From contig OY970194.1 of the NCBI GenBank assembly GCA_963708075.1, positions 701,862 through 765,861 on the forward strand: a stretch of 64,000 nt of DNA, written 5' to 3'. The DNA comes from Sedimentisphaerales bacterium (GTDB lineage: Bacteria > Planctomycetota > Phycisphaerae > Sedimentisphaerales > Anaerobacaceae). Both the position numbers and the translations under genes were made by a program. Below are positions 4,410 to 25,885 of this stretch, in pieces; the stretch's first letter is position 1, and every line of letters starts with the position of its first letter. The notes under the pieces were generated by a model. That model had not been told where the DNA came from and did not search any database. It saw nothing but the letters and a program-made list of their open reading frames with translations.

Positions 4410-4707
4410 GTGTGCGCTGCCTGTGTGATGCCGGTTGACTGTATTTCAGAACTGCTGCATATCCTTCAGATCGACATTACCGCTCGTAAACGTCACGTTC
4501 AATATGGGCAGTATACCCGCTACACATGGGGCGGGGAAGGCCCTGTGCGCAAAATGGGGGTGAAAAAGGCGCAAAGTGGCGTTCGGATACTCATGCGGGT
4601 CAGCTAAGATACTATGACAAAGGATGATTCCGGGTAGCACAGGTGATCCTCGGAATGAACATCATAAATACATTCGATCTGCACGGGAGGGAGGAAGGAG
4701 TAACGCT

Positions 4708-5448: not shown

Positions 5449-5458
5449 TCTGTGGTAG

Positions 5459-5474
5459 ACATAATCGATTATGT
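5459..5474. promoter_or_regulatory. Perfect 16-bp palindrome ACATAATCGATTATGT between the pseudopilin and LamG genes (candidate operator)
   Basis: Read directly; the sequence equals its reverse complement. It has a central CG like LacI-type operators and sits 33 nt upstream of the ATG at 5507. Confidence 0.35.
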
Positions 5475-5506
5475 TGAGGCCCATTTTCTCGAAAACGAGG
5501 TGTGTG

Positions 5507-8428
5507 ATGCATAAGAAATCATTTCTCCTGGCATGCTCTCTGCTGTCACTGATGTGGATAGGTACGGCATCCGCGAGACTGGTTGCGCAGTATGAGTTTG
5601 AGAACAATACGAATGACACCTCGGGGTACGGGCAAAATGCCGTCGCCCACGGCGGTCCCACCTACGGGGCCGGCAAGTTCGGCAAAGCGATGCATTTCGA
5701 TGGCATCGATGACTACGTGGACATCGACCCCTTCAAGTACACCAATGACGACGGGGAGTTCACCCTGACGTTCTGGTTCAAGGTGAAAACGATTCCCGAC
5801 ACGGCCACCAACCAGAGCTTTCCGTATTTGTTCAGCCACGGCATGACGAACAGAAACAACAACATATCCGTCTATTTCCGCGCCAAGGAAGTCGATCAAA
5901 GAACGCACACGCGGCTGATGGATCTCAAGAATCCGGAGGATATCAGAGGAAGCGGAGGGCCGGTGTGGATCACCGATCTTCCCGCGGCAGAGATGGCGAA
6001 CGGACAGTGGCACATGTACACGATCTCGTCATCGGCTGTGGATGGAGGCACCATCTACATCGATGGCAAGGTCATAAGCTCCAATCCGAACTACAAGAGC
6101 GACATGGTCAACCTCAGGGATAAGATCAATCTCGGACGCAGAGGTTTCGAGGGCGAGGCCTCAAGGTACTTCGGCAGCTCGGATCCTGAGGACGGCCTGC
6201 TCGACGACGTCCGCATCTACGCTCGCGCCTTGACGGCGGAGGAGGTAGGCATCGTCATGACCGGCGCGCGTCTGGCGTTTCCGCGAGCCTGGAACCCGTC
6301 GCCGAACGGCAAGGAATTCGTGAGTGAAGACGTGGTCCTCTCCTGGTCGCCCGGCGAGGAAAACGGCAACGTCAAGCCGGTTCCGCACGACGTTTACTTT
6401 GGCACAAGCTTTGAGGAGGTAAGGACGGCGACAGGCGGCGACGATCCGGATGTCCGGTATTTTCCCATGAGCGCCAACAGCATCGATCTTCCGGACCCGC
6501 TGGTGCCGGGCACGACCTATTATTGGCGTGTTGACGCGATCTACGACGTGAACACCTACAAGGGCGACATCTGGAGCTTCACGGTACATCCTTCCGCGGT
6601 GTTCGAGCCTAGTCCATCCGACGGCACGACAGATGTGCCCGTCGATGTGACGCTGACTTGGGCGGCAGGGCAGCTCCAGGCGGCGCCTCCCGTGCAGCAT
6701 GAGCTCTACGTTGGGACTCTGTTCAACGAGGTCGATCAGGCGAGCAGCGACAGCCACCCCGGCGTGGAGTTCAAGAGCCTTGACGTGGATCAGTTCCAGC
6801 CCGGCAATCTGGGCCTGGGTACGACGTACTTCTGGCGGGTGGATGAGCGTTACGCCGGGGCCACCGTGAAAGGCGATATGTGGGCGTTCACGACGATCCC
6901 GTTCGTGGTGGTTGATGGTTTCGAGGATTACAACGACTATCCGCCGTACCGGGTGTTCGACACTTGGATCGACGGATGGGAGATCGCCGACAATGGCGCC
7001 ACGGTCGGTTATCCCGACCCTGACTTCGAGCGGGACGAGCACTTCGTGGAGGTCAAGGTCATCCATGGGGGTAAGCAGGCCATGCCGCTGGCTTACGACA
7101 ATTCAGACACAGCCCGATATTCGAAAGCCTCAGCGGATCTCAGTGCGCTGGGTGTCACCTCTGATTGGACGAAGACCAGCGCCAAGGCTTTGGTGCTGTA
7201 CTTCTATGGGGATGCGGACAATCAGATACGCGCCACGGAGCGCATGGAGATCTCCCTGGAAGATACTGCCGGCCATGTCGCCGCCGTCCCCTATGACGGC
7301 AGCATGTCCGATATACAGCAAGCGGCGTGGCATGAGTGGAACATTGATCTGCAGAAGTTCAGCGATGCCGGGGTGAATCTGAGCAGCGTGGCGAAAATAG
7401 CCATTGGGATTGGCGATCCGAAGGGGACGGTACGCGGCGGCACAGGGACGATATATGTGGATGACATACGCCTTTACGTCAGCAGGTGCCTTGCCCAGTA
7501 CCGACCGGCCGCCGACCTGAACGGAGACTGCCGCGTCGATTACAGAGACCTCCAGATCATGGCGGAGGACTGGCTGATGGCTGACCGCACCTCGGCCGGC
7601 GTGAAGGCGGAGTACCTGTTCGAAGGCAATACGGAGGACACCTCCGGCAACGGGCATCACGCTACCGCATTCGGCGGTCCCAAGTACGTCGCCTTTGATT
7701 TCGGCCAGGCAATGAGTTTCGACGGCGTCGATGACTACGTGGAAATCCAGCCGTTCAAGTACACCAACGACCTCGGGGAATTCAGCGTCAGCTTCTGGTT
7801 CAAAGTGCACGACGTGAACGCGACCCCCACGAACAACGGATTCCCGTACCTGTTCAACCACGGAATGACCAACAGGTGCAACAACATATCCATTTACTTC
7901 CTCAGTTCGGATGGAGCCCTCAGGACGCATACGAGGCTCATGAATCCCGCCAACCCGGAGGACGTCCGGGGGGGCGGGGGCGGTCCGCTGTTCACGTACG
8001 ACGTCCCCGGCCTGGCCAACGGGCAATGGTACTTCTACACGCTGACGTCCTCAGCCGGGACAGGAGGCGCCATCTACATCGACGGTCAGGTCAAGGCCGC
8101 CAACCCGAACTACAAGAGCAACATGGTGAATCTGACTGACACGATCAATTTAGGGCGCAGGGGGTACGTCGGCGAGAACACAAGGTTCTTCGGCAGTTCC
8201 GATGAGGACAACGGCCTGATCGACGATGTTCACTTCTACGATCGAGCGCTTTCTCCCGAGGAAATCGCCACAGTCATGGACGGCAAAGGGCTGGAGAGCG
8301 CAGCGTACTACCCGATTGTCTCGCCGGCCAACCTCTACGACAAGGAGCCGACTCTGTCCAAACGCATCAATTTCAAGGATTTTGCCGCCTTGGCCCAGCA
8401 GTGGCTTCAGGTGCGGCTGTGGCCGTGA
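5507..8428 (+). CDS. Secreted multidomain protein: LamG, two Ig/Fn3-like repeats, a CBM-like domain, a dockerin-like motif and a second LamG
   Basis: Signal peptide MHKKSFLLACSLLSLMWIGTASA. LamG modules at 5579-6265 and 7601-8283. Repeated ...TTY(Y/F)WRVD...G(D)(I/M)W(S/A)FT modules. Dockerin-like DLNGDCRVDYRDL. Confidence 0.8.
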   Translation: MHKKSFLLACSLLSLMWIGTASARLVAQYEFENNTNDTSGYGQNAVAHGGPTYGAGKFGKAMHFDGIDDYVDIDPFKYTNDDGEFTLTFWFKVKTIPDTATNQSFPYLFSHGMTNRNNNISVYFRAKEVDQRTHTRLMDLKNPEDIRGSGGPVWITDLPAAEMANGQWHMYTISSSAVDGGTIYIDGKVISSNPNYKSDMVNLRDKINLGRRGFEGEASRYFGSSDPEDGLLDDVRIYARALTAEEVGIVMTGARLAFPRAWNPSPNGKEFVSEDVVLSWSPGEENGNVKPVPHDVYFGTSFEEVRTATGGDDPDVRYFPMSANSIDLPDPLVPGTTYYWRVDAIYDVNTYKGDIWSFTVHPSAVFEPSPSDGTTDVPVDVTLTWAAGQLQAAPPVQHELYVGTLFNEVDQASSDSHPGVEFKSLDVDQFQPGNLGLGTTYFWRVDERYAGATVKGDMWAFTTIPFVVVDGFEDYNDYPPYRVFDTWIDGWEIADNGATVGYPDPDFERDEHFVEVKVIHGGKQAMPLAYDNSDTARYSKASADLSALGVTSDWTKTSAKALVLYFYGDADNQIRATERMEISLEDTAGHVAAVPYDGSMSDIQQAAWHEWNIDLQKFSDAGVNLSSVAKIAIGIGDPKGTVRGGTGTIYVDDIRLYVSRCLAQYRPAADLNGDCRVDYRDLQIMAEDWLMADRTSAGVKAEYLFEGNTEDTSGNGHHATAFGGPKYVAFDFGQAMSFDGVDDYVEIQPFKYTNDLGEFSVSFWFKVHDVNATPTNNGFPYLFNHGMTNRCNNISIYFLSSDGALRTHTRLMNPANPEDVRGGGGGPLFTYDVPGLANGQWYFYTLTSSAGTGGAIYIDGQVKAANPNYKSNMVNLTDTINLGRRGYVGENTRFFGSSDEDNGLIDDVHFYDRALSPEEIATVMDGKGLESAAYYPIVSPANLYDKEPTLSKRINFKDFAALAQQWLQVRLWP

Positions 8429-8518
8429 CAGAAAGACCCGTTGCATACGTGTGTGAGGTGCAGGATCATGGAAACCCACCCCAAAGAACCGGTTCTGAAT
8501 GAACCAGGAGGAAAGAGT

Positions 8519-10066
8519 ATGGTGACGAGAAGATTGTTGTGCGCAGTCGGTGTCATGCTGTTGCTCGCCTTGGTCAATGGCGCCATGGGCGACCTGGTGG
8601 CCAGGTACGGATTCGAGGGCGATGTGAACGATAGCTCGGGGAATGGGCATGTCGGAACCGCCTACGGCGGCCCCGGATACGCGCCGGGCAGGTTCGGCCT
8701 TGCGATGGATTTCGATGGGGCCGACGATTACATAGAGATCGCTCCCTTCAAATACACAGGTGACTCGGGCGAGTTCAGTCTGACGTTCTGGTTCAACGTC
8801 AAGAGTATCGCTGCGACAGCCGCCAATAATGGGTTCCCGTATTTGTTCAATCACGGCATGACGAACAGGAGCAACAACATCTCCGTGTATTTCCGCAGCG
8901 CTGAGGGCGACCAGAGGACGCACACGAGATTGCAGAATCCCGCTAAGCCCGATGATGTCCGAGGCTCGACCGGCCCGCTATTTATCGTAGATACGAAGGG
9001 CCCGGCGGGGGCAGGGATGGTGGATGGGCAGTGGCACATGTACACGCTCACTTCCTCCGCGGCCAAGGGCGGCACAGTCTACATTGACGGTGTGGCCATG
9101 GGCACAAATCCGGACTACAAGGGCAACCTGGTGAATTTGACCGACATGATCGTCCTGGGACGCAGGGGCTATCAGGGCGAGGCCACAAGATATTTCGGCG
9201 GTCCCGAACCCAATGACGGCATGCTCGATGATGTATGCCTGTGGAATGAGGCCCTGACCCCGGCGGCTGTCGGCCGGCTGTATGCGTATGGCGTCCTCGG
9301 GCCCGCCAATGTCATCGTGGTTTCGGATGCCTTCGATAAGGACGTCGATGGAGTCCAGGATGACCAGGGCCTGGTGGATTGGCTGACGGCCCAGGGCCAT
9401 ACCGTCGATTTCCGGCTCGACTACTGGAACGTGCTCGATCCCAACAAGATCGCGGAGCTTAACGCCGCCGACTTGGTCATCGTGAGCCGCTCGGCGAGTA
9501 CCGGCGATTACGATGATGGCACGGATGAGATCGCCGCATGGAACGCCCTCAAACCGCCGGTCATCTGCCTCCAGGCCTACATGGTCAGAAACAATCGGTG
9601 GAAGTGGATCAACTCCGACACGGCGACCAATAACACGACCTTGTCCCTGATGCAGGTGCTGGACCCCAATCACCCGATCTTTGCCGGCGTGACGCTGAAT
9701 TCGCTCGATCCGAACGATCCGAATAGCCCGCGCGACCTGGCGTTGGTTGTGGACCCGAACGTCGGCACGGGCATTACCTCGTTCGTCGCCGGCCTCGACA
9801 TGGGCAACGGCCGGTTGCTTGCCAAGACCGCCACGGGCGACTACGCTTGGATCGCGGAATGGCAGCCCGGCATCGAGTTCTATGCCGAGGCAGGCCAGAT
9901 CGCCGGCGGCAGGCGCCTGCTGTTCTGCGCAGGCACACAGGAAGTCGGGGCGACCCTCCAGGGCGCGTTCAACCTCACCGCCGAAGGCCAGGAGATGCTC
10001 CGCAACGCAATCGCTTATCTGCGTGCTGAGCCGGTCGAGCCTCCACAGCAAGTCAGCGAGCAGTAG
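8519..10066 (+). CDS. Secreted LamG-domain protein with a C-terminal ThuA/GATase1-like fold domain
   Basis: AGGAGG RBS then ATG at 8519. Signal peptide MVTRRLLCAVGVMLLLALVNGA. The LamG module at 8591-9292 is paralogous to the two in the upstream gene. Confidence 0.75.
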   Translation: MVTRRLLCAVGVMLLLALVNGAMGDLVARYGFEGDVNDSSGNGHVGTAYGGPGYAPGRFGLAMDFDGADDYIEIAPFKYTGDSGEFSLTFWFNVKSIAATAANNGFPYLFNHGMTNRSNNISVYFRSAEGDQRTHTRLQNPAKPDDVRGSTGPLFIVDTKGPAGAGMVDGQWHMYTLTSSAAKGGTVYIDGVAMGTNPDYKGNLVNLTDMIVLGRRGYQGEATRYFGGPEPNDGMLDDVCLWNEALTPAAVGRLYAYGVLGPANVIVVSDAFDKDVDGVQDDQGLVDWLTAQGHTVDFRLDYWNVLDPNKIAELNAADLVIVSRSASTGDYDDGTDEIAAWNALKPPVICLQAYMVRNNRWKWINSDTATNNTTLSLMQVLDPNHPIFAGVTLNSLDPNDPNSPRDLALVVDPNVGTGITSFVAGLDMGNGRLLAKTATGDYAWIAEWQPGIEFYAEAGQIAGGRRLLFCAGTQEVGATLQGAFNLTAEGQEMLRNAIAYLRAEPVEPPQQVSEQ

Positions 10067-10120
10067 TCTTGTAGTTGATAGCGCAAACGGTGATTCCAGA
10101 AACAGGATCATGTTACACAG

Positions 10121-10147
10121 CGGGGCCTGTACCAGGTACGGGCCCCG
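10121..10147 (+). terminator. GC-rich 13+1+13 inverted repeat downstream of the LamG gene (terminator-like, no U-tract)
   Basis: The arms of cggggcctgtacc-a-ggtacgggccccg pair with one G-U. Confidence 0.4.
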
Positions 10148-10173
10148 CCCTTATAGCAGCAAAGGACCCAAGA

Positions 10174-13154
10174 ATGATGTTCACCCCAAGGATGCTCGTG
10201 TGCAGCGTGCTCTCTCTCTTCTGTCTTGAGACTACCATCTTCGCCGGCAGTGCGGCCACACGCACAGCGGACCCTGCTGAGAGCGGCGGTCCCACGCGTG
10301 CCTTGGGTTTCTACAAACCCGGCCAGCCGGTCCCGCTTGAGGAAGGTTTTCGCGATCCCCCGGCGATCTCTCGCGTCCAGTGCTGGTGGCAGCCGCCCGG
10401 CAGCCCATTTACCAAGGACGAGATTACCCGTGAACTCGAGGAGTTCAAGGCGAAGGGCATGGGAGGAGTGACTATCAAGGACACGGGCGAGATGCCTCGC
10501 GATGAGCGTACGGTCCACATCAAGGACATTCCGTTCATGAGCGAACAGTGGCTGGACATGTTCGCGCATATTGTGGCCGAGTGCGGGCGTCTTGAGTTGA
10601 TCTGCCGCAGCCGGTCGAGCAGCGGATGGAACGAGGGGGGGCCGTGGATTCCACCCGAAATGTCCATCAAGACACTGGTCTTCGCCAAGTCGCAGCCGCT
10701 TCAGGGGCCGACAACGTACTCAGGACCGATTCCCCGCGAAGTCCCGGAAGCACGAAAAGCCGTCGCCCGGGCTGAGACGCCACAGGTGCCCAGTCCGACG
10801 ACCGAGCAGTTCAAAAGCGGGCAGGCCTTTGTGCTCGCCGTGTGCGAGGACGACCAGCGCGTGGTCGATCTGACCGCGAAAGTGTCGGAGACCGGCACGC
10901 TCGTGTGGAGTGTCCCGAGCGGCCGATGGAGTCTGCTGTCGTGCTATGGAAAGCCCACCGGCAAAAAGCTTGTGTCAACCAGTGTGAGCGGTGGCGGCCT
11001 GCATGCCGATAACCTCAGTGCCGCCGCGGCCGACCTTCACATCCGGGAATTCATGGAGCGGATGCGGACGAGGGTCGGCGGATTTGAGAACACGGCCTTC
11101 GATGGCTTCAACAGCGACGGCTTCGAGCTGGGCCTTCCCACCTGGACGCCGGGACTACGGCAGTTCTTCATGCAGCGGTGCGGCTACGACCCGGTTCCGT
11201 TCTTTCCTCTGCTGGCCGGCTACGATCTTGGCCAGGCCGGCCAGCGGTTCCTCTACGATTTCAGGACCACTGTCGGGGACCTCATTGTCGCGAACCACTA
11301 CAGTCACTATAGTGCCTGGTGCCGGGAGCACGGCGTCGCTTTCGATGCGCAGTGTGTCGGCGGACCAAGCCATCGGCATACGCACGATTTCCTCACCGCC
11401 TGCGGCGCCGTGGATATCCCGATGGGCGAGACCTGGATTCACGGCGCGCATATGTCAAGATGGCCTCTTCCGCAGCTCATACGTATGGCAAGCGGCTGGT
11501 CGGCCTTGAATACGGGACGCAGAAAGCCTGGTTTTACGCTCCCACGCCAGCCCTGCTGAGAATGCGGGCTGATGAATCGTTCTTGCTCGGCGCCAACTAC
11601 TTGTGCCTTCCTTGTGTAGATTATACGCCTCCCGAGGCCGGGTATCCCGGATGGGTCCATTCTCAGCCCGACCGCTTGGGCCTGGGCCAGACGTGGTGGC
11701 CGCTCTCTCGCCCACTGTTCGATTACCTCGCCCGTTGTTGTTTCCTGCTGCAGTCGGGAAAGCCTGTGGCCAGTGTCGCTGTATACAACAGTTTTCATAG
11801 CCGGGCGAACATGGTCTGGCTGTCTCCCGACGACGACAAGCTCTCCAGCCTTCCGAGGCAATATGATTTCGACTACGTCAGCGATGACCTCCTTGTGAAC
11901 CACATGCGCGTCGAGGACGGTCGGATCATGCTGCCCTCGGGCGCAACGTACGAAATCCTGTACATTCCTCCTGCCGCCGTCTACTCGGGCGGCATGGGGC
12001 CCCGGCCCACGGCTTTCACAGAGCCGCGCGTCGATATGCCGCTGGAGAGTCTGCTGAAGATCCGCGACATGGTTCGCCAAGGCGCGACGGTGGTCTGGGC
12101 GGGTGAGTTGCCGAAGCGATCTCCGAGCCTGAAGGGACAACCTGATGCCGATATGAATTATGAAGCTGCGATCAGGGAGTTGCAGGCGGACCGGCGGCTG
12201 ACGAGGCTGCCGGAGCACAACTGGAATGCACTTGTTCCGATGCTCGCCAAGAGCGCCCAACCGCCCGCGTGGCAACTCTCCGGGGATGTGCCGCTGCGGT
12301 TCGTTCATCGGCGTCTGCCGAACGCGGACCTCTTCTTCATCACTCATCGGGGAGTGCAGGATAGCTACAAGGATATGACCGACCTGCTATGGGCGAGGAA
12401 GATGGACAGCGGGGCCATCGTGCATCAGCTCTTCGCGGAGACACGTCCAGTCGAGACTTCCGTCACGTTCCGTATCAAGGGGCGCCGGCCGGAGTTCTGG
12501 TGGGCTGAATCCGGGCGGATCGAGCCGGCTCCCTGGCAGGAGACCCCCGAAGGAGTATCGGTAACGGTCAAACTGGAGCCCTATGCGTCGGTCTTCGTCG
12601 TCTTTCGCGATGCTGCGAGCAATGAGCGGCAGGCGAAGAGTGACAAGCGACAAGCGGCGGGTAACGGACAGACCATCGAAGGGCCGTGGGAGTTGAGATT
12701 CCCGGCGGGCTGGAAGACGCCTGAAAAGGTCACTCTTTCGAGCCTGAAGTCCTGGACGGAAATGGAGGACATCGAGGTCCGGCACTTCAACGGCATCGCT
12801 GCATACAGCACGACGTTCACTGTCGCTCAGGACGCCCGCGAAGGAAAGAAGGCGGAGCTGGATTTGGGCCGGGTGGCGGATATCTGTGAGGTGTGGCTCA
12901 ATGGGCAGCGTGTGGGGATCGCCTGGCAGGCCCCGTACCGCGTGGACATCACTGACGTGTTGCGCTCCGGTGAGAACCGCCTGGAAGTGCGGGTGACGGC
13001 TACATGGCACAATCGTCTCGTTCGTGATGCAGCCCTGCCGAAAGCCGAACGGGTGAGCCGCATGTACCCTGAGGCTCACTACGCCAGATTCAAGGGCCGT
13101 AGTCTCATCGAATCCGGCCTCCTGGGCCCTGTGCGGCTCGTTTTGGGCCCGTGA
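10174..13154 (+). pseudogene. GH106-like glycoside hydrolase (jelly-roll / GH2-type sugar-binding C-terminus) interrupted by a frameshift near 11440-11460
   Basis: ORF 10075..11559 ends ...IPMGETWIHGAHM. Homology continues in ORF 11319..13154 as YVKMASSAAHTYGKRLVGLE.... The C-terminus reads FNGIAAYSTTF...CEVWLNGQRVG...GENRLEVRV. Confidence 0.6.
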
Positions 13155-13419: not shown

Positions 13420-13449
13420 TTGACTCACGCGAGAAGAGGTCGATAGAAT
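13420..13449 (+). promoter_or_regulatory. Sigma-70-like promoter (TTGACT, 18-nt spacer, TAGAAT) for the Mo-related operon
   Basis: Hexamers read directly. About 150 nt upstream of the ATG at 13606. Confidence 0.4.
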
Positions 13450-13556: not shown

Positions 13557-13580
13557 CGTTATGTCGGACCCGACATAACG
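13557..13580. promoter_or_regulatory. 11+2+11 perfect inverted repeat CGTTATGTCGG-AC-CCGACATAACG; ModE-operator-like
   Basis: Read directly. Sits 26 nt upstream of the ATG at 13606, and the operon encodes a ModE-type wHTH. Confidence 0.5.
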
Positions 13581-13605: not shown

Positions 13606-13797
13606 ATGAAGTCGCAAGAGGAGTTGACCAAGGCGGTTCTCGAACGGTCCGGAGAGGTGAACGGTCGCCGGACCTTGACGTGCGCCCAGGCCCTGAGCCT
13701 TGCGGCCGAGCTCGGTGTGAAGCCGGTCGAGATTGGCCGCATCTGTAATCAGGAGAATGTCCGCTTGGGCAGTTGCCAATTAGGTTGTTTCTCGTAG
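13606..13797 (+). CDS. Small (63 aa) conserved-looking protein ending in CQLGCF; function unknown
   Basis: GAAGGAG RBS at 13594-13600 then ATG at 13606. Its stop overlaps the RBS (TAGGAGG) of the next gene. Confidence 0.5.
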
Positions 13798-13813: not shown

Positions 13814-14965
13814 GTGGAGAAGCTCAAACCAAGGTTCAAGCTGTGGCTGGATAGCGAAGACGTCCACGGCGTGTTCGGGGGCGGCAAATGCCGGCTGCTC
13901 GAAAGCATTGAGAAGACCGGCTCGCTACGTGCCACTAGCGATGCGCTGCACATCAGCTATCGCAAGGCGTGGGGTGATCTGAAGAAAGCTCAAGCTGCCC
14001 TGGGCATCGTTCTGATCGAGCAGCACCGCGGCGGTCGCCAGGGCGGCCGGACCGTGCTCACCGAGCAAGGGAAGCAGTGGGTCCAGGCCTACAGCCGGTT
14101 TCACCGAGACGTCGAGGCCGCGGTGCAGACGTCCTTCGAAAGATTCTCCCGGGAAGTTGCATCCCGGCGAGGCTTCAGTCTGATCGAGCTGCTTGTTGTC
14201 ATCTCAATCGTGGCCCTGCTCATGGCTCTCACTTTGCCGGCAATGGGGCGTGCACGGGCACTGGCAAGGCAGGCCGTCTGTCAGAACCGGCTGCACCAGT
14301 GGGGTTTGGCCTTCGCCGCGTACGCCGCAGAGAACTCCGGATACTACCCGCACGCCGATGGCAGGGACCGTTCCGGGGATGAAGAGCCTTTCACCCGCGA
14401 GGGGATCGCGGACTACTGGTTCGGATGGGTGGATGTCCTGGCGCCTCTGGTGGACGAGAAGCCCTGGCGCGAGCATACCCGAGGTGCCTATCCGGGCGTC
14501 AAGACCGTATTTCAATGTCCCTCTGCGGCGCTGGCGCCCGAGTCGCTGTACTCGTACAAACCGTTGCGGAACGGGTTCTTCTCGTATGCCATGAATTCCT
14601 GTCTGGAATTGGATGCCAACTGCTGGGCCCCTTATGGTCAGACGGGCGGCAACAACATGCCCAGCTTCCTGGATACGGCACGGATCAGGACGCCCGGGCG
14701 CGTGATCCTGCTCTTCGATCAGTTGCTGGACTCCTCGAAGGGATACGGCGGCAATGAAATCAACCGTTCGGCGGGCCGCCACTGTGGAAGTTACCCCAAG
14801 GCCTTCAGCGCCCACCACGCCAAGCCGGGGGGAACGCTCGGCGGCTTCATTCTCTATTGCGACTACCACGTTGGGTGGAAACAAACAGTCTGGAAAGCCG
14901 AGTGGCCGGCGACCCCCGATTTCGAGGCGCCGCCCCGGGACGATCCGGACTGGTATCCCTACTAA
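13814..14965 (+). CDS. Fusion protein: ModE-type N-terminal winged-helix DNA-binding domain plus prepilin cleavage/methylation motif plus HX9DG/DUF1559-like domain
   Basis: Residues 1-112 ([30 protein letters not shown]...[16 protein letters not shown]) parallel the E. coli ModE N-domain. Residues 117-140 are RRG|[19 protein letters not shown]. The ORF is one continuous 383 codons. Confidence 0.75.
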
Positions 14966-15013: not shown

Positions 15014-16045
15014 ATGGTGCACAAGAACAAGACTTGTATGAAGGTCGTCGTTTCGGCTGTTTGCATCGCGTGTGTACTTCCGTGCCTCGCGCAAGGTGGC
15101 GTTCTGACCATTCCTGAGATTCAGTACACCGAGTCGCCTGACGGGGCCAGCCTTTACAGCGGAAAGACCGTCGATTGCCTCGGGGGCATCGTAATCGCCA
15201 AGGTGGCCGGCGGACGCCCCCGGCTGTTCCTGCAGGATCCCAACGCCCTCGACGGCTGGGGCGCCATCCAGATCAAGGGTTGGGTCAGTGACGCCTTCGC
15301 CAGTGTGAGCGTCGGGGACTGGGTCGAGATCCGGCAGACCTTCGTCGAGGAGTTTCGCGGGACGACGTTCCTGCAGTACTGGGACAAGAATCCCGACGGT
15401 TCCCAGCCGGTGCTGACGGTCGTGAGTCATGGCCATAACCTCCCCCAGCCGCTCGTTGTAGACGTGAATGAAATCAAAGCGCCCGAGTACCTGCTCACGG
15501 AAGATGCCTGGTCCGTGGCCAATCACCGGGCGGAGAGACTCGAGTCCATGCTCGTGCAGATTCGAAACGTGGTCGTGGTCGAGCAGGGCATGGGCAAGGC
15601 GCAGGACAACTACGAGCTCCAGTTGTTTCGCGAGCCGAACGATATGGGCGCCCTTTGCTGGGCGAGCGACTATGCGAACAAGGATCGAAAGAAACCCGAT
15701 CTGTACCTGCCTGGGGTTGAGACGGGCCGGCGCTTTCGAGCAGTGACCGGCGTGCTCGAGCAATACACGAACCTGGGCGAGGGCTTCGATTACTATCAGC
15801 TCCTGACGTTGAGCGAAACGAGCCTGGTGGGGCTTTGCCCGGCAGACCTGGATGAGGACGGCGACGTCGATCTTTGGGATTCCAAGCTGTTCATCGAGCA
15901 ATTGCTCTCGCCGTCTTTGCCCTTGGCAGGCGATCTGAACCATGATGGAAAGGTGGATTCAATTGATCTCGATCTGTTCAATGCGGCGTGGCAGCAGGCC
16001 GATGTGAACGGCGATGGTATCGTAGATGGCGATGACCTCGATTGA
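15014..16045 (+). CDS. Secreted protein with an OB-fold-like N-terminal domain and C-terminal dockerin/EF-hand-like repeats
   Basis: Signal peptide ...VVVSAVCIACVLPCLAQG. The C-terminus has DLDEDGDVDLWD, GDLNHDGKVDSIDL and DVNGDGIVDGDD. Confidence 0.65.
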   Translation: MVHKNKTCMKVVVSAVCIACVLPCLAQGGVLTIPEIQYTESPDGASLYSGKTVDCLGGIVIAKVAGGRPRLFLQDPNALDGWGAIQIKGWVSDAFASVSVGDWVEIRQTFVEEFRGTTFLQYWDKNPDGSQPVLTVVSHGHNLPQPLVVDVNEIKAPEYLLTEDAWSVANHRAERLESMLVQIRNVVVVEQGMGKAQDNYELQLFREPNDMGALCWASDYANKDRKKPDLYLPGVETGRRFRAVTGVLEQYTNLGEGFDYYQLLTLSETSLVGLCPADLDEDGDVDLWDSKLFIEQLLSPSLPLAGDLNHDGKVDSIDLDLFNAAWQQADVNGDGIVDGDDLD

Positions 16046-16126
16046 TGACGGATGATGGATTATTGATGATTGGCAGACACGCTGGGACACGCCTTTTCAA
16101 TCATCCATCATCAATAATCAATCATC
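16044..16126. repeat. Inverted pair of heptad arrays (GATGACG GATGATG GATTATT GATGATT ... AATCATC CATCATC AATAATC AATCATC) flanking a 27-nt GC-rich core
   Basis: Read directly. Lies between the stop at 16045 and the RBS/GTG at 16149. Confidence 0.75.
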
Positions 16127-16148
16127 AAGGATCTTAAGGAGACCGAAC

Positions 16149-16784
16149 GTGAAAAGAGAGTACATTCTGGGAGTGTTGTTCTTCGGCGGCGTGTGGGGTA
16201 TATCGGAAGCGGTGTTGGGGGGTGCTCTCTATGCCTCGCATGTGCCCTACGCATCCGTGCCGCTGACGGTCGTAGGCCTGGCGGTCCTGACCGTTGCGAG
16301 ATCGTATTTCCCGCGGAGAGGCACACCCACGCTTGTCGCGGCCTGTGCCATGCTCTACAAATTCCTGAACTCACCATTCTTCGGGTGTCATTTGGTGGGA
16401 ATCCTCATTACCGGGGCCTGCTACGACCTCGTGTTCGACGTGCTGAAGATCAGACTGAAGTCCCTTGCGGCGGCGGCGACAGTGTACCTCAGCTATGCGG
16501 CATTCGCTCTGATGATCACCTACGTGTTCCGGTACGACCACTGGGTACAAGGTGGGATCGCCAACGTGCTCCGGCACACCTTCATCGGAGGCAGCATGGC
16601 TGCGTTGGCTTGTGCCTGCATCGTCCCCCTGAGTGCAGCGGCCGGCGAGAGACTCAAGGCGTATTCCACCACGCCCTTCGGGCTGCTCCGACCCTCGATC
16701 CCCGGCGGAATCTCTGCCGTGACCCTCGGGTTATGGGCGTTTGCCGTGGCCACGTGCCTGCTGAGCAACCCCTCCATCCGATAG
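16149..16784 (+). CDS. Polytopic membrane protein (about 6 TM), unknown function
   Basis: AAGGAG RBS then GTG at 16149. Hydrophobic throughout. The next gene's start codon abuts its stop. Confidence 0.6.
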   Translation: MKREYILGVLFFGGVWGISEAVLGGALYASHVPYASVPLTVVGLAVLTVARSYFPRRGTPTLVAACAMLYKFLNSPFFGCHLVGILITGACYDLVFDVLKIRLKSLAAAATVYLSYAAFALMITYVFRYDHWVQGGIANVLRHTFIGGSMAALACACIVPLSAAAGERLKAYSTTPFGLLRPSIPGGISAVTLGLWAFAVATCLLSNPSIR

Positions 16785-17333
16785 GTGTTCCACATGATGC
16801 TTTTCCTGTGGACGGGGCCGAGGCACTGCGGCAAGACAACCGGGGCTGCGAGGCTTGCCCGTATGGCGGGGCAGTGTGGCTTCCGTGTGGCCGGACTTCT
16901 TGCACCTTCAGTCTACCGGGACGGACATCTTGTCGGATTCGATGCACTGGACTTGGCTAGTGAAGCCCGAGCCCCACTGGCCGTGCGCCGGGATGATCCG
17001 GGCGACGTCGGGTCGTTCCACTTCGTTGAAGAGGGACTGATACTCGGCAGTCATGCACTTGATGTGGCCGCGACCGAAGGGGTGGACCTTGTCGTCGTCG
17101 ATGAGTTCGGTCCGCTGGAGCTTGCATCCCGGGGCTGGCGCCGAGCTGTGGATTCGCTCGTCTACGCCGGCAGGACGCCGCTTCTCATCGTTGTTCGCCG
17201 GGAGCTGGCCGGCGCAGTCCAGGAGGTATACGCAGATGTCCCCAGCAGAGTCCTTGATGCCACTGCCCCTGAATCTGCTCATGAGGTAATTTGTATGCTG
17301 AGAGATAATCGAGCCGCAGGAGAGACAGGGTGA
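16785..17333 (+). CDS. P-loop NTPase, DUF2478/THEP1-like
   Basis: Walker A in LFLWTGPRHCGKTT and Walker B in DLVVVDEFGPLE. The start could instead be ATG 16794 or 16797. Confidence 0.6.
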   Translation: MFHMMLFLWTGPRHCGKTTGAARLARMAGQCGFRVAGLLAPSVYRDGHLVGFDALDLASEARAPLAVRRDDPGDVGSFHFVEEGLILGSHALDVAATEGVDLVVVDEFGPLELASRGWRRAVDSLVYAGRTPLLIVVRRELAGAVQEVYADVPSRVLDATAPESAHEVICMLRDNRAAGETG

Positions 17334-18469
17334 TTCGGCTTGAGAACATGCTGATGATCGGCTCCTCCGGATCCAATGTCGGCAAGACCGAGCTGGCGTG
17401 TACGCTGCTCCGACGACTTGGTGGCAATCACCGGATCGTTGGTGTCAAAGTGACTGCCATCGAGGCCACAGATGGGTCGTGTCCCCGAGGAGGGCAGGGC
17501 TGCGGCGTCTGCTCCTCGATGGATGCGGAGTATCGGATAACAGAAGAAACGGATCGCCATGTTGGCAAAGACACCGCGAGGCTTCTGGCGACGGGCGCCG
17601 ACAAGGTATACTGGCTCCGCGTCATGCGGACACATCTGTGCCAAGGCTTGAGCGCCCTGCTCGAAGCCGTGGGTCGTGACACGGTTCTGATCTGTGAATC
17701 GAACTCATTGCGGCAGGTAGTGGAACCGGGGCTCTTTCTCATTGTCGATCGCACGGATCGCAGGTCCTGGAAGCCCTCTGCACAACAGGTAAGACAGCAC
17801 GCCGATAAGATCGTGCTCTCTGACGGCAGTCGTTTCCATCTCGACCTCGGACGCATTCAGCTCGCGGGGCCCCGATGGCTGCTGACGGAGGACGCGACCG
17901 CCATCGTGCTGGCCGGAGGACACAGCCGACGAATGGGCGCAGACAAGAGCATGCTCCCGATCAATGGCCGACCGATGATCGAGCATATCTGCCGGCAACT
18001 CCGCGGCACATTTGCCAGGGTGCTCATCAGCGCCAATGACACGGAGAAGTTCTCCTTCCTCGGCCTGGAGGTCATTCCTGACAGGATACCCGACCAGGGG
18101 CCGCTGATGGCGGTCGCCTCGGCCCTGGAAGCCTCCAGCACCGAGTTCAACCTAGTCGTAGGCTGTGACATTCCGCGGATCCGATTGCCCGTCGTCAGAC
18201 GAATGCTCGCCGAAGCCGCCGAAGCCGACGCAGTCATTCCGGTAACCGAGGATGGGAAGGAGCAACCTTTGTTTGCCGTCTACCGCAGGAGCATTCGCCG
18301 GGCCATGAATGAGGTCCTCGAATTGGGCGGCCGGCGACTCAGTCAGATCTACGATTCCTGCAAGGTGCGTTTCATGGCTCTCGATGATCAGAACTGGTTC
18401 GCAAACCTGAACACGATGGCCGACTATGAGCGATTCCGGAGCGGATACAATGCTCGCAAGCCCTTATAG
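17330..18469 (+). CDS. mobA: Molybdenum cofactor guanylyltransferase MobA fused to an N-terminal P-loop (GSSGSNVGKT) domain
   Basis: The C-terminal half (AIVLAGGHSRRMGADKSMLPINGRPMIEH...LVVGCDIP) is MobA-like. The N-terminal 175 aa carry a deviant Walker A. GTGA overlap with the upstream gene. Confidence 0.75.
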   Translation: MIRLENMLMIGSSGSNVGKTELACTLLRRLGGNHRIVGVKVTAIEATDGSCPRGGQGCGVCSSMDAEYRITEETDRHVGKDTARLLATGADKVYWLRVMRTHLCQGLSALLEAVGRDTVLICESNSLRQVVEPGLFLIVDRTDRRSWKPSAQQVRQHADKIVLSDGSRFHLDLGRIQLAGPRWLLTEDATAIVLAGGHSRRMGADKSMLPINGRPMIEHICRQLRGTFARVLISANDTEKFSFLGLEVIPDRIPDQGPLMAVASALEASSTEFNLVVGCDIPRIRLPVVRRMLAEAAEADAVIPVTEDGKEQPLFAVYRRSIRRAMNEVLELGGRRLSQIYDSCKVRFMALDDQNWFANLNTMADYERFRSGYNARKPL

Positions 18470-20309: not shown

Positions 20310-22169
20310 TCACCTGGTGAGCACGAATTCTGTAAGGTCGGCGATTTGCTCCTCGGTCAGTCCCGAGGTCTTGCCGTGCTTATTATCCGGGTTGCACACT
20401 GCCAACACGTCCCGGATTGTGGCCGCCCGTCCGTCGTGCAGGTATGGCGCTGTTCGCCAAACCTCGATAAGCGTCGGGGTATCAAACGCCTCGGTGGTCT
20501 CGGAGCCTGATCCGGTGCCCACGCTATATAGCTTCCCGTTCGTGTAGAGCGGCCCATTGTGGCAGGAGGCGCAGCCGGCCTCTTGAAAGACCTGCTGGCC
20601 TCGCAAGGCCGCCGGTCCCGGCTTTCCATCGACCCAATGCGGGCTTGGAATCGGTTGGAGCGATTCGAGGTACCGATCGATGGCGACGGCGTCACTTTCC
20701 GGCCGCACGGCAAACTGGATGTATCGGATGCCGGCGCGTACGGCAACTTCGGCATTCTCGCGGACGCCCAGACTCATCGAGGGGGGCGTGCGATGCGCCA
20801 GGAGAAGGCTCTTGGTATTCTTGGGATTGCCGATGCCGTCATTGAGCAGGTCCCAGTTCAGAACATCCGCCCGCCCGGAGCCCGGATGGCAGCTTGCGCA
20901 GCTCTGCCACTGCTGGAAGCACAAATCGGCATCGTGGAAGAGCATCTCGCCTCGACGCACCTCGCTGAGGGGCACTGTCGGCTGCAAAGGCACCGACCTT
21001 GCCTTTGCCGGGACTGCCGCCGCCAGATCGACCACCCCCAGGCTATCCGTGAAGTACTCCGCGGCGAACGCCTTCGTTCCAACCACGGCCAGTCCACGCG
21101 GCCCCTTTCCCAATAGCGGCACCCGCTGTTTCAGGCCGACCAGAAAGGAAAGGTCGTTGGGCACATCATCGGGTGTCCTCGCCACCGGCGTGATCTGCTC
21201 GCCCGCGGCCACTTTCGATAATCTGGTGTGGAGTCCCTCCCGGTCGATCAGGCATAGCTCATGTGTGCCGGATAGTGTAATAACCAGATGTTTGCCGTTT
21301 ACGGTGCACGTAACACCCCAGGGATTGGCGGCGCCAAGGTCCACGTCATCGAGAAGGACTGTGTTGAGCCATTTCCTATTCTTCACGTCGATCACACTCA
21401 GGGCGTTTGTGTTGATCCAGCCCCGTTCGACCTGCGTTGTAGGAAGATGGTGGCGCCCGAGGACATGTGTTGTGTACGCGTACGCTCCGTCAGGAGACAG
21501 GCACAGGCCCTGCAAGCCGGTCGAGCCATTGGGCAACTCGATGGTGGCTATGGCCTTTCTCGTCTGCATGTCGAGCAGGGAAATTGTCGCAGCGATGCGC
21601 TCCCCGTCCGATCTGCCCGCGGGCAGATGATTGGCGACCACGAGCGTGGAGCCATCCGGCGTGAGTGCCGCCGCGACCGGCTCCCGTTGTACCGGGATTC
21701 GCTCCAGCATCTTGCCGGAGAGAGCATCGACAACGGAGACATCGTTGGTGAAGCGATTACAGACGTAGAGCGTCTTCCCATCAGGGCTCAGCACGGGGGA
21801 ATTGGGCGTGTGCCCGGCTTTGGCGAGCAGCTTCGCTTGCCGCGTGGCCATATCCAGGGCGTACACTTCACCGGCGGGTGAGGCCGCTGTGACGTAAAGC
21901 TGCGAGGCATCCGGCGACAGTGCCATTCCACTCGGCAGGCAGGGCAGTGTGATTTCACCGAGGGGCTTCTCCGCGTTAGGATCGAAAATGATCAGCTTCT
22001 TGGACGTGGCGGTTGCCACGTACAGAGTGTTCCCTTTCCCGCCCACGAGGACGTGCGGCGAAAGATATTCTCCTGCCGGCTCCTCACCCGCCCACAGCAA
22101 GCAGGAGAGAAAGCACAGTCCCACAATACCCGCAATCGCGAACTTCATACAACAATCCTTATGCTTCAT
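20310..22169 (-). CDS. YncE/YVTN-type beta-propeller fused to a di-heme cytochrome c peroxidase (CCP/MauG-like) domain
   Basis: Signal peptide; repeated ...SPDG..LYV... blades; two CxxCH motifs (CASCHPG, CASCHNG). ATGA overlap with the upstream gene stop. Confidence 0.75.
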   Translation of the reverse strand: MKHKDCCMKFAIAGIVGLCFLSCLLWAGEEPAGEYLSPHVLVGGKGNTLYVATATSKKLIIFDPNAEKPLGEITLPCLPSGMALSPDASQLYVTAASPAGEVYALDMATRQAKLLAKAGHTPNSPVLSPDGKTLYVCNRFTNDVSVVDALSGKMLERIPVQREPVAAALTPDGSTLVVANHLPAGRSDGERIAATISLLDMQTRKAIATIELPNGSTGLQGLCLSPDGAYAYTTHVLGRHHLPTTQVERGWINTNALSVIDVKNRKWLNTVLLDDVDLGAANPWGVTCTVNGKHLVITLSGTHELCLIDREGLHTRLSKVAAGEQITPVARTPDDVPNDLSFLVGLKQRVPLLGKGPRGLAVVGTKAFAAEYFTDSLGVVDLAAAVPAKARSVPLQPTVPLSEVRRGEMLFHDADLCFQQWQSCASCHPGSGRADVLNWDLLNDGIGNPKNTKSLLLAHRTPPSMSLGVRENAEVAVRAGIRYIQFAVRPESDAVAIDRYLESLQPIPSPHWVDGKPGPAALRGQQVFQEAGCASCHNGPLYTNGKLYSVGTGSGSETTEAFDTPTLIEVWRTAPYLHDGRAATIRDVLAVCNPDNKHGKTSGLTEEQIADLTEFVLTR

Positions 22170-25100
22170 GGTTCCGAGCCCGGTTGATTCTGCGTATTTG
22201 CGTTCAGGATTCGCTCCTGCGGTCTTTCCGCGGCGAATCGTGGAGAATCATCCGCCTCGATGATAATGCGGAAACCCACATTGTACACCTTCTGCCAAGC
22301 CGGGTAGCTCAGTCGAAATGCCGACCGGCATCGCTTGGGACGGTCATACCAGGAGCCGCCGCGGACGATTTTGTGGCTGCTCTCATCCATCTCATTTCTC
22401 CCATCGTTGGCCCGGTACGGATAGGCGGCATACGCGGATCGCGTCCATTCCCAGGCGTTGCCGTGCATGTCATGCAGGCCCCATGCATTCGGGCGGTAGC
22501 TGCCCACCTGGGTCGTCACCAGCTCGCCGTCGTCGAATCGATCATCACGCGGGACAATATCCGGTGGAAGCTGGTCGCGGGCGTCATACGCCATGTCTCG
22601 CATCGTCACGTCAGCCATGTTCGCATATTCAGAGAAGTCCGTATTCAGGTCTCCATAGGACAGGTCGCTGTCCGCGCCGGCACGGCAGGCCCATTCCCAC
22701 TGGGCCTCCGTCGGCAGGGTGACTTGCTCACCTGTTTGCCTGGACAGCCAGCGGCAGAACGTCACGGCCTCCTTCCAGGACACGCGCACGACAGGCTGCC
22801 TGGGCTGATTCAGCGGCCAGCCGAGGTCCCACTCATTGAACATCCAGCTTCCCTTGTCCTGGAACCGGCTGTCGTGGCTCCGATCGAACTGCGAGAACTG
22901 CTCGTTGGTGATCTCAAACTGGCTCATCCAGAAGGGTTTGTCGATCCTGACGCGCGCCGCCGGTCTCTCGTCGCGCTCGCCGCGAGGATCGCCCATCACG
23001 AACTCGCCCGCGGGAACGTAGACAAGCTTCAGTTCCATGCCTTCGCCCAGCTTGATCGCGCGATGAATCTCCCCAAGCTTGGCCTGGCGGCTCTTGGCTT
23101 CATCTGCCCCAAAGGGCCAGCCGGGGACTTCGATGCGTTCGCCGGACGCTTTGGGCTCAGGTTCCGGGCGAACGGGCTCTATCGGCTGCTGGTGCATGGC
23201 CGGGTAGACTTCCGGGTCCTCCGCATCACCGCCGTAGATGCGCCGCAGCTCGATGCGCCGCCTGTGATCGCTCTGCATTTTCTCCTGGCCGACGACTTCT
23301 CGCCACGTGCCGTGACACGGCGCGTTGAGATCGATCCAGATGCAGATTCGTTCCCAGGCCTCTCTGTCGAGCCGGACGCCGTAATGGCCCTTCTTGAGCA
23401 TTTGGACGAGCTCGCTCGTGTCGGCGTGGAACTCGCCCGGCGCCAGCAGGCGAAGATCGCTCTCCAGACCTCCGACCCTCACCAGACGGCGAAGGGCGAT
23501 ATAGGAGGGAGAAAAAACCCCGCCGTACTGCTTGACCAACTGCTCGCGGGGGACATCGGAGATGATCCTGGCCCGAGGGTCACCATTCTTGTAGGCGATG
23601 AATCGACCCTGATCGCGGCGCAGGTCGGGCTCTGCTTCGCCGTCTCCTCTCGTCCCGTTGTGACAAGAGACACAGTATTTGTCGAGGACGGGCTGCACCT
23701 CGCGCTCGAAGCTGAACCCGCGGACCGGCCCGCGCCAGAGCTCGATTTCCACCGGTTTCTGCCGGCTGGCGATGGTCCTGCGGTTCGGAGGACCGGAATT
23801 CTGCTGCTCGTGGCAACCGACGCACGAGACAACCTCACCGGGCATAGCCGTAGTCCAGCTTCGCATAAGCTGCAGCGCGCGTCCCTGCTCGTCGAGCGGT
23901 TGAATGGAGATGGGTGTATTCGCCGGCACGCGAAAGAACGCCGACCCATCCGCCTCGACTGGAACGGTCCCGAGGACGCGCTTGGGCTCCCACGGGCCGT
24001 CTGTTCCGACGCGATGGTTGATCCCTGCGACTCCATGGTATGAGAATTGATACGTAAACAGGCGGAGTTGTTTGACCGCTCCTTGCGGGACTCCTTCCAG
24101 TCCAGGGCCGGCATAGATGTTCTCCATGTAGATCAATGCGTCTTTGCGGTCCAGGTCGACGCGGTCTGCAATCACCGGCGGTCTTGCGGTCCTGCGCAGT
24201 GGAATCGGTTCGAGCAGGGCATATCCTTCGATCTCCTTGATGAGCGTGATGTTGTCGAAGATGTCCGCCAGGTAGATGCCCCACAGGTCGTCCGGCCGGG
24301 GTTTGCAGGAGACGAGGAAGTACTTGTCGCTCAGCGGCCAGGGATGGAGGAACTTGGGCCAGCTATCGAGGGTCAGCTTATCCTCGATGATCGGCTCGAC
24401 TTTACGGCCGCGACCGGGGATGCGCTGCACGACTCCATCGGTGGACACCCGACCCAGTGCGGGGTCGAAGAGGGTCAACTCGCCGACCCGCCCGACGTGA
24501 TGGCCGGTGACGATCCCGACGACCTCCGTCGGATGGTTCGGTATCGGCCGGGTGTAGAAGATCGAGTTCGGCCAGTAGCCGCCGCTGCCGTAGAACTCCC
24601 GCTGGCCTGTGCCGTCCGGGTTCATGGTGAACAGGAATCTCGCCCACACGTGCGGGATATCGGTGTACTCCCAACGCAGGTAGAGGATGCGTCCATCGTT
24701 CATGACGGTGGGGCAGAAGTTGTGGTCCTGCTCGAAACAGATCTGCCGAACGTTCTTACCGTCCGCGTCCATGATATAGCTCATGCCCACGTTCACACCG
24801 GTATTGCATGGGACGCCCTGGAAGGGCGCCGTGGAGATGAAGGCGATCCTTCCGTTGGGCAGATAGCACGAGTCGAAGTTGTGGACGTCGGGCTGGTCGG
24901 TGGGCGAAATCTGACGCAGCTTCCCCGTGGCGACATCGATCTCGAAGATCTGCCAGAGGTTGCGGCCATCCGGCATGGAGAACATCAGTTTGCCGGCGTC
25001 GAAATGCAGGTCCATCTCGCTGACCAGCCGTCCCTGTGGCGGCCTGTAGAGCGTTGGCAACTCGCCCTCTGGCCGGACCGGCGAAAGGACCGCGATCTCA

Positions 25101-25612: not shown

Positions 25613-25885
25613 GTCAGCTATCACCTCCCGAAAGGATCTGGTTGATACCTGTCGAAGCTTGCGTCCGAACGCAAGGAAGTCCGCAGCCCATTGTGAGAAT
25701 GCGGCAATATACGCAGACAGTCTACACGTATCCGGATTATAGCTGATTGCGGGAAGTATGCAAAGGGGCCTGCTTAGTAGCCATGTCAATAGCCGGTTTT
25801 CTGACGGGAAATTGAAGCGGTGTGTGGTAAGATACTGTGATTCCAGATGACAGGATTGTGAAGGTTTCGTTGATGGAGGTCGAGA

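Follow-up and report, generated by a model that had tools for sequence, protein, structure and literature searches.

A ModE-type DNA-binding domain encoded as the N-terminal part of a prepilin-like protein in Sedimentisphaerales

Results

An open reading frame joins a ModE-type winged helix to a pseudopilin

We analysed a 64,000-nucleotide stretch of DNA from a Sedimentisphaerales bacterium (Planctomycetota; assembly GCA_963708075.1, contig OY970194.1, positions 701,862 to 765,861), hereafter the window. An open reading frame (ORF) on its forward strand, at 13814-14965, begins with GTG and encodes 383 amino acids plus a stop without interruption. Its product combines a winged helix-turn-helix (wHTH) domain of the kind found at the N terminus of ModE (ModE-N), a prepilin motif and a divergent pseudopilin body of DUF1559 type. 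A first-pass annotation had drawn attention to this gene, and the positions it gave for the 383-codon ORF, for the Gly-Phe pair of the prepilin site (14171-14176) and for an internal GTG behind GAGG were all correct. Residues 1-120 (13814-14173, forward strand) comprise the wHTH domain and a long C-terminal helix (residues 84-117). They align end to end with the separate wHTH proteins of three related loci (L004, L005 and L091) and would be the leader if the fusion protein is cleaved. The predicted prepilin-peptidase site lies between G120 (GGC, 14171-14173) and F121 (TTC, 14174-14176), and the mature pseudopilin of 263 aa (14174-14962) has a hydrophobic α1-N helix followed by a head rich in Cys, His and Asp. 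An in-frame GTG (V104, 14123-14125), 5 nt behind GAGG at 14114-14117, is a candidate internal start that would give a leader of 17 aa.

The assignment of the N-terminal part to ModE was borne out by profile, sequence and structure comparisons. TIGR00637 (ModE_repress) matched residues 22-110 with E=3.4e-19 and 68.7 bits, under its curated cut-off of 98.5, and Pfam HTH_1 matched residues 27-87 at 26.7 bits (gathering score 26.6). In phmmer searches of the PDB the wHTH sequence matched the stand-alone putative ModE of Agrobacterium tumefaciens (2ijl, E=1.8e-7, residues 21-105) and Escherichia coli ModE (1o7l/1b9m, E=4.7e-5), and the pilin helix matched a Geobacter pilin. The AlphaFold2 model of the whole protein (pLDDT 87.2) has ModE structures as its top Foldseek matches (1b9m, 1o7l and 2ijl). 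It is divided into the wHTH (residues 11-82), the long helix (84-117), a non-helical hinge (118-122) and the pilin helix (123-173). Pfam and NCBIfam scans of the ORF gave no Mop/TOBE domain, in agreement with the first-pass annotation.

The prepilin site is canonical (G120|F121, with E125). Both PF07963 (N_methyl; 28.7 bits against a cut-off of 21.2) and TIGR02532 (29.8 bits against 16.3) match residues ~117-141, and the site is conserved in 117 homologues, fused and split alike: position -1 is Gly or Ala, F+1 is present in at least 90% and E+5 is invariant. The body of the protein had been described as DUF1559/HX9DG-like. For DUF1559 the match was partial: PF07596 scored 27.8 bits, with a gathering score of 23.3, but covered residues 146-227 alone, equivalent to positions 2-74 of the 268 in the profile. 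The HX9DG label was not supported. TIGR04294, the HX9DG model, was undetected at E<=10 in both the mature protein and its last 103 residues; an ordinary DUF1559 pilin of the window (4624-5445) gave a weak match of 16 bits. The local C-terminal sequence has DY where HX9DG has DG, and there is no His at D-10. The head is highly conserved, with ~47 invariant columns among 105 sequences, including H180, D182, H335, D350, H352 and four Cys. When the mature part was modelled separately with AlphaFold2 (pLDDT 83), no PDB fold matched it (best E about 5). This result speaks neither for nor against a ModA-like periplasmic-binding fold, an idea that came from the Pfam name SBP_bac_10.

The protein departs from both of its constituent kinds. 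It lies outside the 110-135 aa range of stand-alone ModE N-domain proteins, within which the split orthologues fall (116 aa in L004, 115 in L005 and 119 in L091) and into which it would come only if cleaved, and 120 residues precede its cleavage site, against 15-29 aa in the split orthologues. Public records carry automatic labels only, such as 'molybdate transport system regulatory protein' or 'prepilin-type ... protein'. Literature searches on DUF1559 with pilin, prepilin peptidase with transcription factor, and ModE with pseudopilin found no description of the architecture, within the limit that 'ModE' collides with the word 'mode'. This agrees with the earlier impression that the two parts had not been described together. 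The architecture appears undescribed and is built from two known kinds of protein.

The fusion is a genuine gene

A search of 5.8 billion protein clusters recovered 12 further full-length clusters (377-397 aa, 56-85% identity) with the same architecture and varied linker lengths, and the exact protein of the window is recorded on a 7.5-Mb contig. The identical junction (...|FSLIE) recurs in another assembly of this species (L087), on three contigs from Illumina metagenomes (L088-L090), in locus L007 of a metagenome-assembled genome (MAG) and in NCBI protein RPJ29305.1. Nucleotide alignment with the split loci L004 and L009 revealed a clean 36-nt in-frame deletion in the window clade. The deletion took out ...GG TAG ATG..., and with it the stop of the wHTH gene, the start of the pilin gene and most of the pilin leader.

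A missed stop or an indel could in principle have joined two genes in the assembly, since the contig has frameshift-like breaks elsewhere, for example in the GH106 gene at 10075-13154, and the sister assembly L087 has breaks of its own. The same 36-nt in-frame deletion is, however, present in six independent assemblies, short-read ones included, with nucleotide divergence around it, and a clean 36-nt deletion is unlike a homopolymer-type error. These results confirm that the fusion is a genuine gene, as the first-pass annotation had argued on other grounds, and leave the artefact reading effectively refuted, with next to no probability.

The broken genes were noted separately. The GH106 α-L-rhamnosidase-like gene (10075-13154, forward strand) is represented by the overlapping ORFs 10075-11559 and 11319-13154. 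In L087 it is broken at another place (266 + 727 aa), and the dockerin gene is split too. The GH106 breaks look like assembly indel errors rather than biology.

The usual state is two genes, and fusion occurred repeatedly

Related loci were surveyed with one genome per GTDB species, which gave 80 loci, all from Planctomycetota MAGs and mostly from Phycisphaerae/Sedimentisphaerales. The usual state is two genes: one for a wHTH protein of 115-119 aa, followed directly by one for a prepilin of ~276 aa with a leader of 15-29 aa. Of 85 loci sorted by regular expression, 47 were split and 9 fused, a figure that takes in the window and duplicate loci; in 25 no wHTH was detected, and 4 lay at contig ends. 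By tblastn the wHTH was found in 70 of 91 loci, and distant wHTH genes were recovered upstream in several of the regular-expression negatives; about 20 of the 91 loci are pseudopilin copies that lack a wHTH. One MAG (CAYHAJ01) carries both a fused copy (L007) and a second pseudopilin paralogue (L012), 79% identical, with no wHTH upstream.

The stop codon of the wHTH gene overlaps the pilin start (ATGA) in L005 and some 40 further loci. In the closest relatives of the window, L004 (7997-8003), L009 and L091 (2998-3003), the TAG stop of the wHTH gene is followed at once by the pilin ATG in the same frame, so that stop read-through would also give a full-length fusion. The survey shows a majority state, which is also the ancestral one, of two separate and translationally coupled genes. 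It follows that the wHTH normally works as a free protein of 115 aa. The first-pass annotation had proposed, as speculation, a one-component membrane regulator and proteolytic switch; the majority and ancestral split state speaks against such a design.

The junctions of the fused genes differ. The window clade has the 36-nt deletion; in L010, L011, P0005, P0007 and P0008 the stop was turned to sense and the full length kept; L013 and P0011 have a frame-changing join; and P0015/P0032/P0035 on the one hand and P0037 on the other have two further, separate deletions. In a tree of the mature pilin domain the fused forms stand at separate places among the split forms. Together, the separate positions and the differing junctions indicate at least four to five separate origins of the fusion. 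Fused genes have kept the prepilin motif and the recognition helix, and the candidate operator described below is retained as well.

The fusion of the window clade is, judged from its relatives, evolutionarily recent. We considered a neutral or mildly deleterious accident, now decaying, in which the regulator, the pilin or both no longer work. Few of the species representatives carry a fusion (about 5 of 80), and the closest relatives, L091 with at least 90% pilin identity, are still split, which makes the event in the window clade a young one. Within the fused clades, however, where dS reaches 0.36-0.90, the wHTH has dN/dS values of 0.17-0.30 and the pilin values of 0.07-0.20. Both halves are under purifying selection. 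Decay is very improbable in view of these values, of the intact operator, recognition helix and pilin motif, and of the persistence of the fused state across diverged members of several clades.

A second alternative is that translation also starts inside the ORF, at GTG 14123 or another near-cognate codon, and yields an ordinary prepilin with a leader of ~17 aa, leaving the full-length product to act as a regulator, whether tethered or cleaved. The sequence GAGG-N5-GTG (14114-14125) fits this idea, all six aligned fused loci read GTG at this codon, and the resulting leader would be typical in length and have a net positive charge. The stop-to-sense fusions L010, L011, P0007 and P0008 also keep the former pilin ATG in frame. 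The same codon nevertheless encodes a conserved wHTH Val/Met in split orthologues (GTA in L004, ATG in L009), and this GC-rich genome commonly uses GTG for Val. Moreover, Met is missing from the vicinity of the motif in P0005, the P0015 clade, P0037 and the window clade, and the fate of the full-length product would still need explaining. We regard internal initiation as quite unlikely.

The fusion gene stands in a conserved molybdenum-cofactor cassette

The fusion ORF takes the place of the second and third genes of a cassette with the order 63-aa Cys-rich protein, wHTH, pseudopilin, secreted dockerin protein, membrane protein, NTPase and MobB/MobA. This conserved cassette of anaerobic Phycisphaerae, putatively under Mo-box control, is present in more than 50 Phycisphaerae species, and four of its seven genes are without known function. 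All of its genes in the window are on the forward strand. The first (13606-13797; strong Shine-Dalgarno sequence AAGGAG before the ATG) encodes 63 aa ending in ...CQLGCF(S). An orthologue occupies this place in 55 of 87 loci. The orthologues (L001, L003-L005, L007-L011 and others) have 4-5 Cys, end in an invariant CQLGCF motif and are encoded always as the first gene behind the palindrome described below and directly upstream of the wHTH gene. It gave no Pfam, NCBIfam or PDB match, the PDB sequence search returning chance-level matches only, and all 42 of its 42 homologues are unnamed or 'hypothetical'. The ModE-N regulator has no sensor domain of its own, and the 63-aa protein could be a partner that senses a metal or cofactor for it.

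Downstream of the fusion ORF, the gene at 15014-16045 encodes a 343-aa protein with a hydrophobic, signal-like N-terminal segment and dockerin/FG-GAP motifs (Dockerin_1, E=1.2e-9); a gene for 307-351 aa occupies the same place in L001, L003, L004, L005, L088 and L091. The next gene (16149-16784), syntenic in all loci inspected, encodes a polytopic membrane protein of 211 aa. Pfam and NCBIfam gave no match to it and the PDB search only chance-level ones; nearly all of its 468 homologues are 'hypothetical', and one carries the JGI label 'thiamin/HMP transport permease'. A syntenic gene for an NTPase_1/DUF2478 P-loop NTPase follows (16785-17333; PF03266 E=1.4e-19, PF10649 E=5.8e-8). The last cassette gene (17330-18469) encodes a MobB-like P-loop domain fused to MobA, the molybdenum cofactor guanylyltransferase (PF12804 E=3.5e-39; TIGR02665 E=2.1e-39, 135.5 bits against a cut-off of 151.85).

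Neighbours of the cassette at related loci include formate dehydrogenase (FDH; L001, L004), FdhD (L004), carbon monoxide dehydrogenase/acetyl-CoA synthase (L003, L005) and, in L088, a Psr-like molybdopterin oxidoreductase and MoeA. In the window, 30-40 kb from the cassette, there are genes for an FDH alpha subunit, a Nuo51-like subunit, methylenetetrahydrofolate reductase, a DUF3786 protein and a ModA-fold binding protein. A link of the cassette to molybdenum is supported by MobA and by the neighbouring Mo/W enzymes and molybdenum-cofactor (Moco) genes of the related loci. The rest of the cassette (15014-18469) may be an undescribed Mo/W-related envelope system.

A ModE-box-like palindrome precedes the cassette

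A perfect 24-bp palindrome, CGTTATGTC-N6-GACATAACG, lies at 13557-13580, with 25 nt between its end and the 63-aa ORF. It shares its 9+6+9 layout with the E. coli ModE consensus ATCGNTATATA-N6-TATATANCGAT and resembles a Geobacter site, ATCGTTATgTc... (PMC545781). The palindrome is the sole match in the 64-kb window, and a scan of the window at up to 3 mismatches gave no further Mo-boxes, for example before the FDH genes or the ModA-like gene. In about 40 of the 55 loci a related site, with the consensus CGATATGTCGA-N5-TGCATAACC/G, precedes the small ORF by some 25-30 nt, and such a site also occurs at the fused loci L001, L003, L007, L010 and L011. The first-pass annotation had named the palindrome as a possible binding site, and its retention in about 40 related loci together with its ModE-box geometry makes it a very good candidate for a ModE-box-like operator. 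A consensus scan also found a candidate sigma-70-like promoter, TTGACT-18-TAGAAT, at 13420-13449 (forward strand; 10 of 12 matches), for which the evidence is weak, 2 sites being found against 1.5 expected in shuffles.

The wHTH subfamily has other Moco partners

We searched 1.84 billion representative proteins by HMMER with residues 1-150 and obtained 499 relatives at E<=1e-10, nearly all of them stand-alone proteins of 100-150 aa. Among the top 150 representatives none extended into the pilin segment. The few longer relatives, from other organisms, have the wHTH fused to MobB-MobA, MobB, MobA, an HD domain or a YqeC-like P-loop protein (P0162, P0173, P0200, P0156 and P0222). In P0162 the wHTH is naturally joined to a MobB-MobA protein like that encoded by the last gene of the cassette. 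These fusions tie the regulator subfamily to Moco genes and indicate that it readily fuses to a downstream gene. The family is one of sensor-less ModE-N proteins that repeatedly captures Moco-pathway proteins as C-terminal partners.

Prepilin processing may release the regulator

Prepilins have a cytoplasmic N terminus and are cut on the cytoplasmic face of the membrane. A regulator encoded before the motif would for this reason be cytoplasmic and would be removed by the housekeeping prepilin peptidase. The reading that we favour, with about even confidence, is that the fused precursor enters the membrane N-in, like any prepilin, and that cleavage regenerates the two ancestral products, of which the wHTH controls the cassette. 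The housekeeping peptidase would cut at G120|F121 and give a soluble wHTH of ~120 aa and a mature pseudopilin with an N-terminal Phe. The freed wHTH would dimerise, bind the palindrome at 13557-13580 and control the cassette, its own gene included. The regulator would in effect be a class III signal peptide of 120 residues. Fusion may have been tolerated, and may have recurred, because the leader is removed anyway. As a side effect, release of the regulator would be coupled strictly 1:1 to production of the pseudopilin, by way of membrane insertion and the peptidase.

Some of this has precedent. Prepilin peptidase accepts Ala at -1 in pneumococcal pilins, and the folded cytoplasmic domains T18 and T25, placed on pilin N termini, gave working membrane proteins (PMC8727766). 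The non-helical hinge predicted at residues 118-122, at the cleavage site, gives indirect support for cleavage. The ancestral split state also favours cleavage that regenerates the ancestral products over a sensor of the ToxR/CadC kind, and regulation of the proteolysis would be an additional assumption.

Several points weigh against this interpretation. Cleavage of the fusion protein is a prediction from its sequence. To our knowledge prepilin leaders have at most about 30 residues, and we know of no natural folded leader of 120 aa. The deletion-type fusions leave 3-4 residues between the long wHTH helix and the scissile bond, a spacing that might hinder the peptidase, and among 30 large ORFs of the window scanned with Pfam none was identified as a prepilin peptidase gene. 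About 100 nt separate the operator from the sole promoter-like match upstream of it, which suggests no clear mode of control. The model also does not account for the presence of a pseudopilin in a Moco cassette, or for the sensing of Mo or W by a ModE-N protein that lacks Mop domains; the same gap is noted for the Desulfovibrio proteins (PMC545781).

In the principal alternative the protein stays uncleaved, as a membrane-tethered one-component regulator like ToxR or CadC. The pilin helix would be its anchor, the periplasmic head would sense Mo/W or the state of the envelope, and the ModE-N dimer would bind the operator while tethered. The recurrent fusions would then be a Rosetta-stone sign that the wHTH and the N terminus of the pseudopilin already interact when encoded separately. 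The layout is suitable, with a cytoplasmic wHTH, a single transmembrane (TM) helix and a conserved extracytoplasmic domain, and the invariant His, Asp and Cys residues of the head could bind a ligand; the head, however, has no detectable likeness to any solved ligand-binding fold. Full-length ModE (1b9m/1o7l) carries its sensor domains at this very end of the N-domain, the C-terminal one, so that tethering at this point need not block DNA binding. The recurrence of fusion, at least five times, and the three fusions that shorten the linker instead of keeping the leader also speak for a tethered product. In the majority and ancestral state, by contrast, the wHTH is free, which argues that tethering is not required for function. 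Residues G/A-1, F+1 and E+5 are strictly kept in every fused lineage, which would be unexpected for a mere anchor, and the wHTH subfamily also joins the cytoplasmic enzymes MobA, MobB and HD, fusion to the downstream gene being common. We consider a tethered regulator unlikely.

The processing model can be carried one step further, to a prepilin peptidase that releases a transcription factor, the release depending on membrane insertion and on PilD-type processing of the pseudopilin, and so wires a pilin-based envelope apparatus to control of a Mo/W-cofactor cassette. The cassette itself might then be a pilin-dependent system for Mo/W acquisition or for the export or maturation of Mo enzymes. 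We offer this extension tentatively and think it doubtful.

Comparison with known systems

E. coli ModE shares with the window protein the N-terminal wHTH and dimerisation domain, the 9+6+9 layout of the candidate operator and a context of Mo cofactor and enzyme genes. The window protein differs in that it has no Mop/TOBE domains, scores under the TIGR00637 cut-off and has a membrane pseudopilin as its C-terminal partner, and the core of its half-site is TATGT/GCATA, compared with TATATA for ModE. Stand-alone ModE N-domain proteins are known (2ijl; Desulfovibrio, PMC545781), and the ancestral form at these loci, 115-119 aa long, is exactly of this kind; the window protein has the domain in one chain with what is elsewhere the product of the next gene.

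Pseudopilins of type II secretion systems and type IV pilins (GspG, PilA, ComGC) have the same G|FxxxE motif, hydrophobic α1-N and globular head. In contrast to these proteins and to planctomycete DUF1559 proteins, the leader in the window is a folded DNA-binding domain of 120 aa, and the head is without the HX9DG signature. Their usual setting is a secretion, type IV pilus or polysaccharide-utilisation cluster, whereas the window gene sits in a Moco cassette. ToxR, CadC and TcpP have a similar layout, with a cytoplasmic N-terminal winged helix, one TM helix and an extracytoplasmic domain. Their wHTH is, however, of the OmpR type and they have no prepilin motif, while that of the window protein is of the ModE/LysR type. 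The DNA-binding domain of ToxR, CadC and TcpP is never separate in orthologues, and that of the window protein usually is.

Membrane-tethered regulators freed by proteolysis include pro-sigma-K, cut by SpoIVFB, systems in which anti-sigma factors undergo regulated intramembrane proteolysis, and regulators of the SREBP/Notch type. The window protein, if cleaved, would be alike in that a DNA-binding protein arises from a membrane precursor through an intramembrane or juxtamembrane protease of the aspartyl type. It would differ in that the protease is the constitutive prepilin peptidase, acting at a class III signal-peptide site, in that the 'leader' is what is freed, and in that the portion left in the membrane has a function of its own. 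In Pseudomonas aeruginosa the pool of PilA in the inner membrane is linked to gene regulation, PilS-type kinases sensing pilins in the membrane, and PilA-PleC of Caulobacter is reportedly also a pilin-as-signal system. In both cases a separate kinase senses the pilin, whereas the regulator in the window is encoded as part of the prepilin.

A PilS-like histidine kinase with six TM helices is encoded in the window at 43701-45056 (forward strand). Behind it, in a region extending to 46458, are genes for a fragment of a TauE-like permease and for a binding protein of the SBP_bac_11 type (ModA fold). A kinase of the same kind, 42% identical, is encoded directly after the cassette and FdhD in L004 (13256-14623). 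Since PilS-type kinases sense pilins in Pseudomonas, a link between the PilS-like kinase and the pseudopilin is conceivable.

We know of no natural case in which a prepilin peptidase removes a whole folded protein. Cleavage of the window protein would be the first, and it would widen the substrate range of prepilin peptidases and reveal a new coupling of envelope assembly to gene control. If it stays uncleaved, the protein is a membrane-bound ModE of a new kind. In both cases repeated fusion gives strong evidence, of the Rosetta-stone type, for joint work of the ModE-type regulator and the DUF1559-type pseudopilin. DUF1559-type pseudopilins are among the most expanded and least understood families of Planctomycetes, and the cassette provides a defined Mo/W setting in which to study one.

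Other features of the window

An AraC-type regulator with a periplasmic-binding-protein-like domain (3239-4378, reverse strand) is divergent from the ordinary DUF1559 pseudopilin at 4624-5445, which has a normal leader. Two genes for large LamG-domain proteins follow the pseudopilin gene, and after them comes the GH106 gene (neighbourhood 3239-10063). From this arrangement it seems that operons for secreted proteins in this organism commonly begin with a pseudopilin gene. Further downstream, a protein of 1264 aa (22169-25960, reverse strand) combines HZS_alpha, the middle domain of the hydrazine synthase alpha subunit, with an FGE-sulfatase domain, and a beta-propeller/di-haem cytochrome c peroxidase-like protein (20313-22169) adjoins it.

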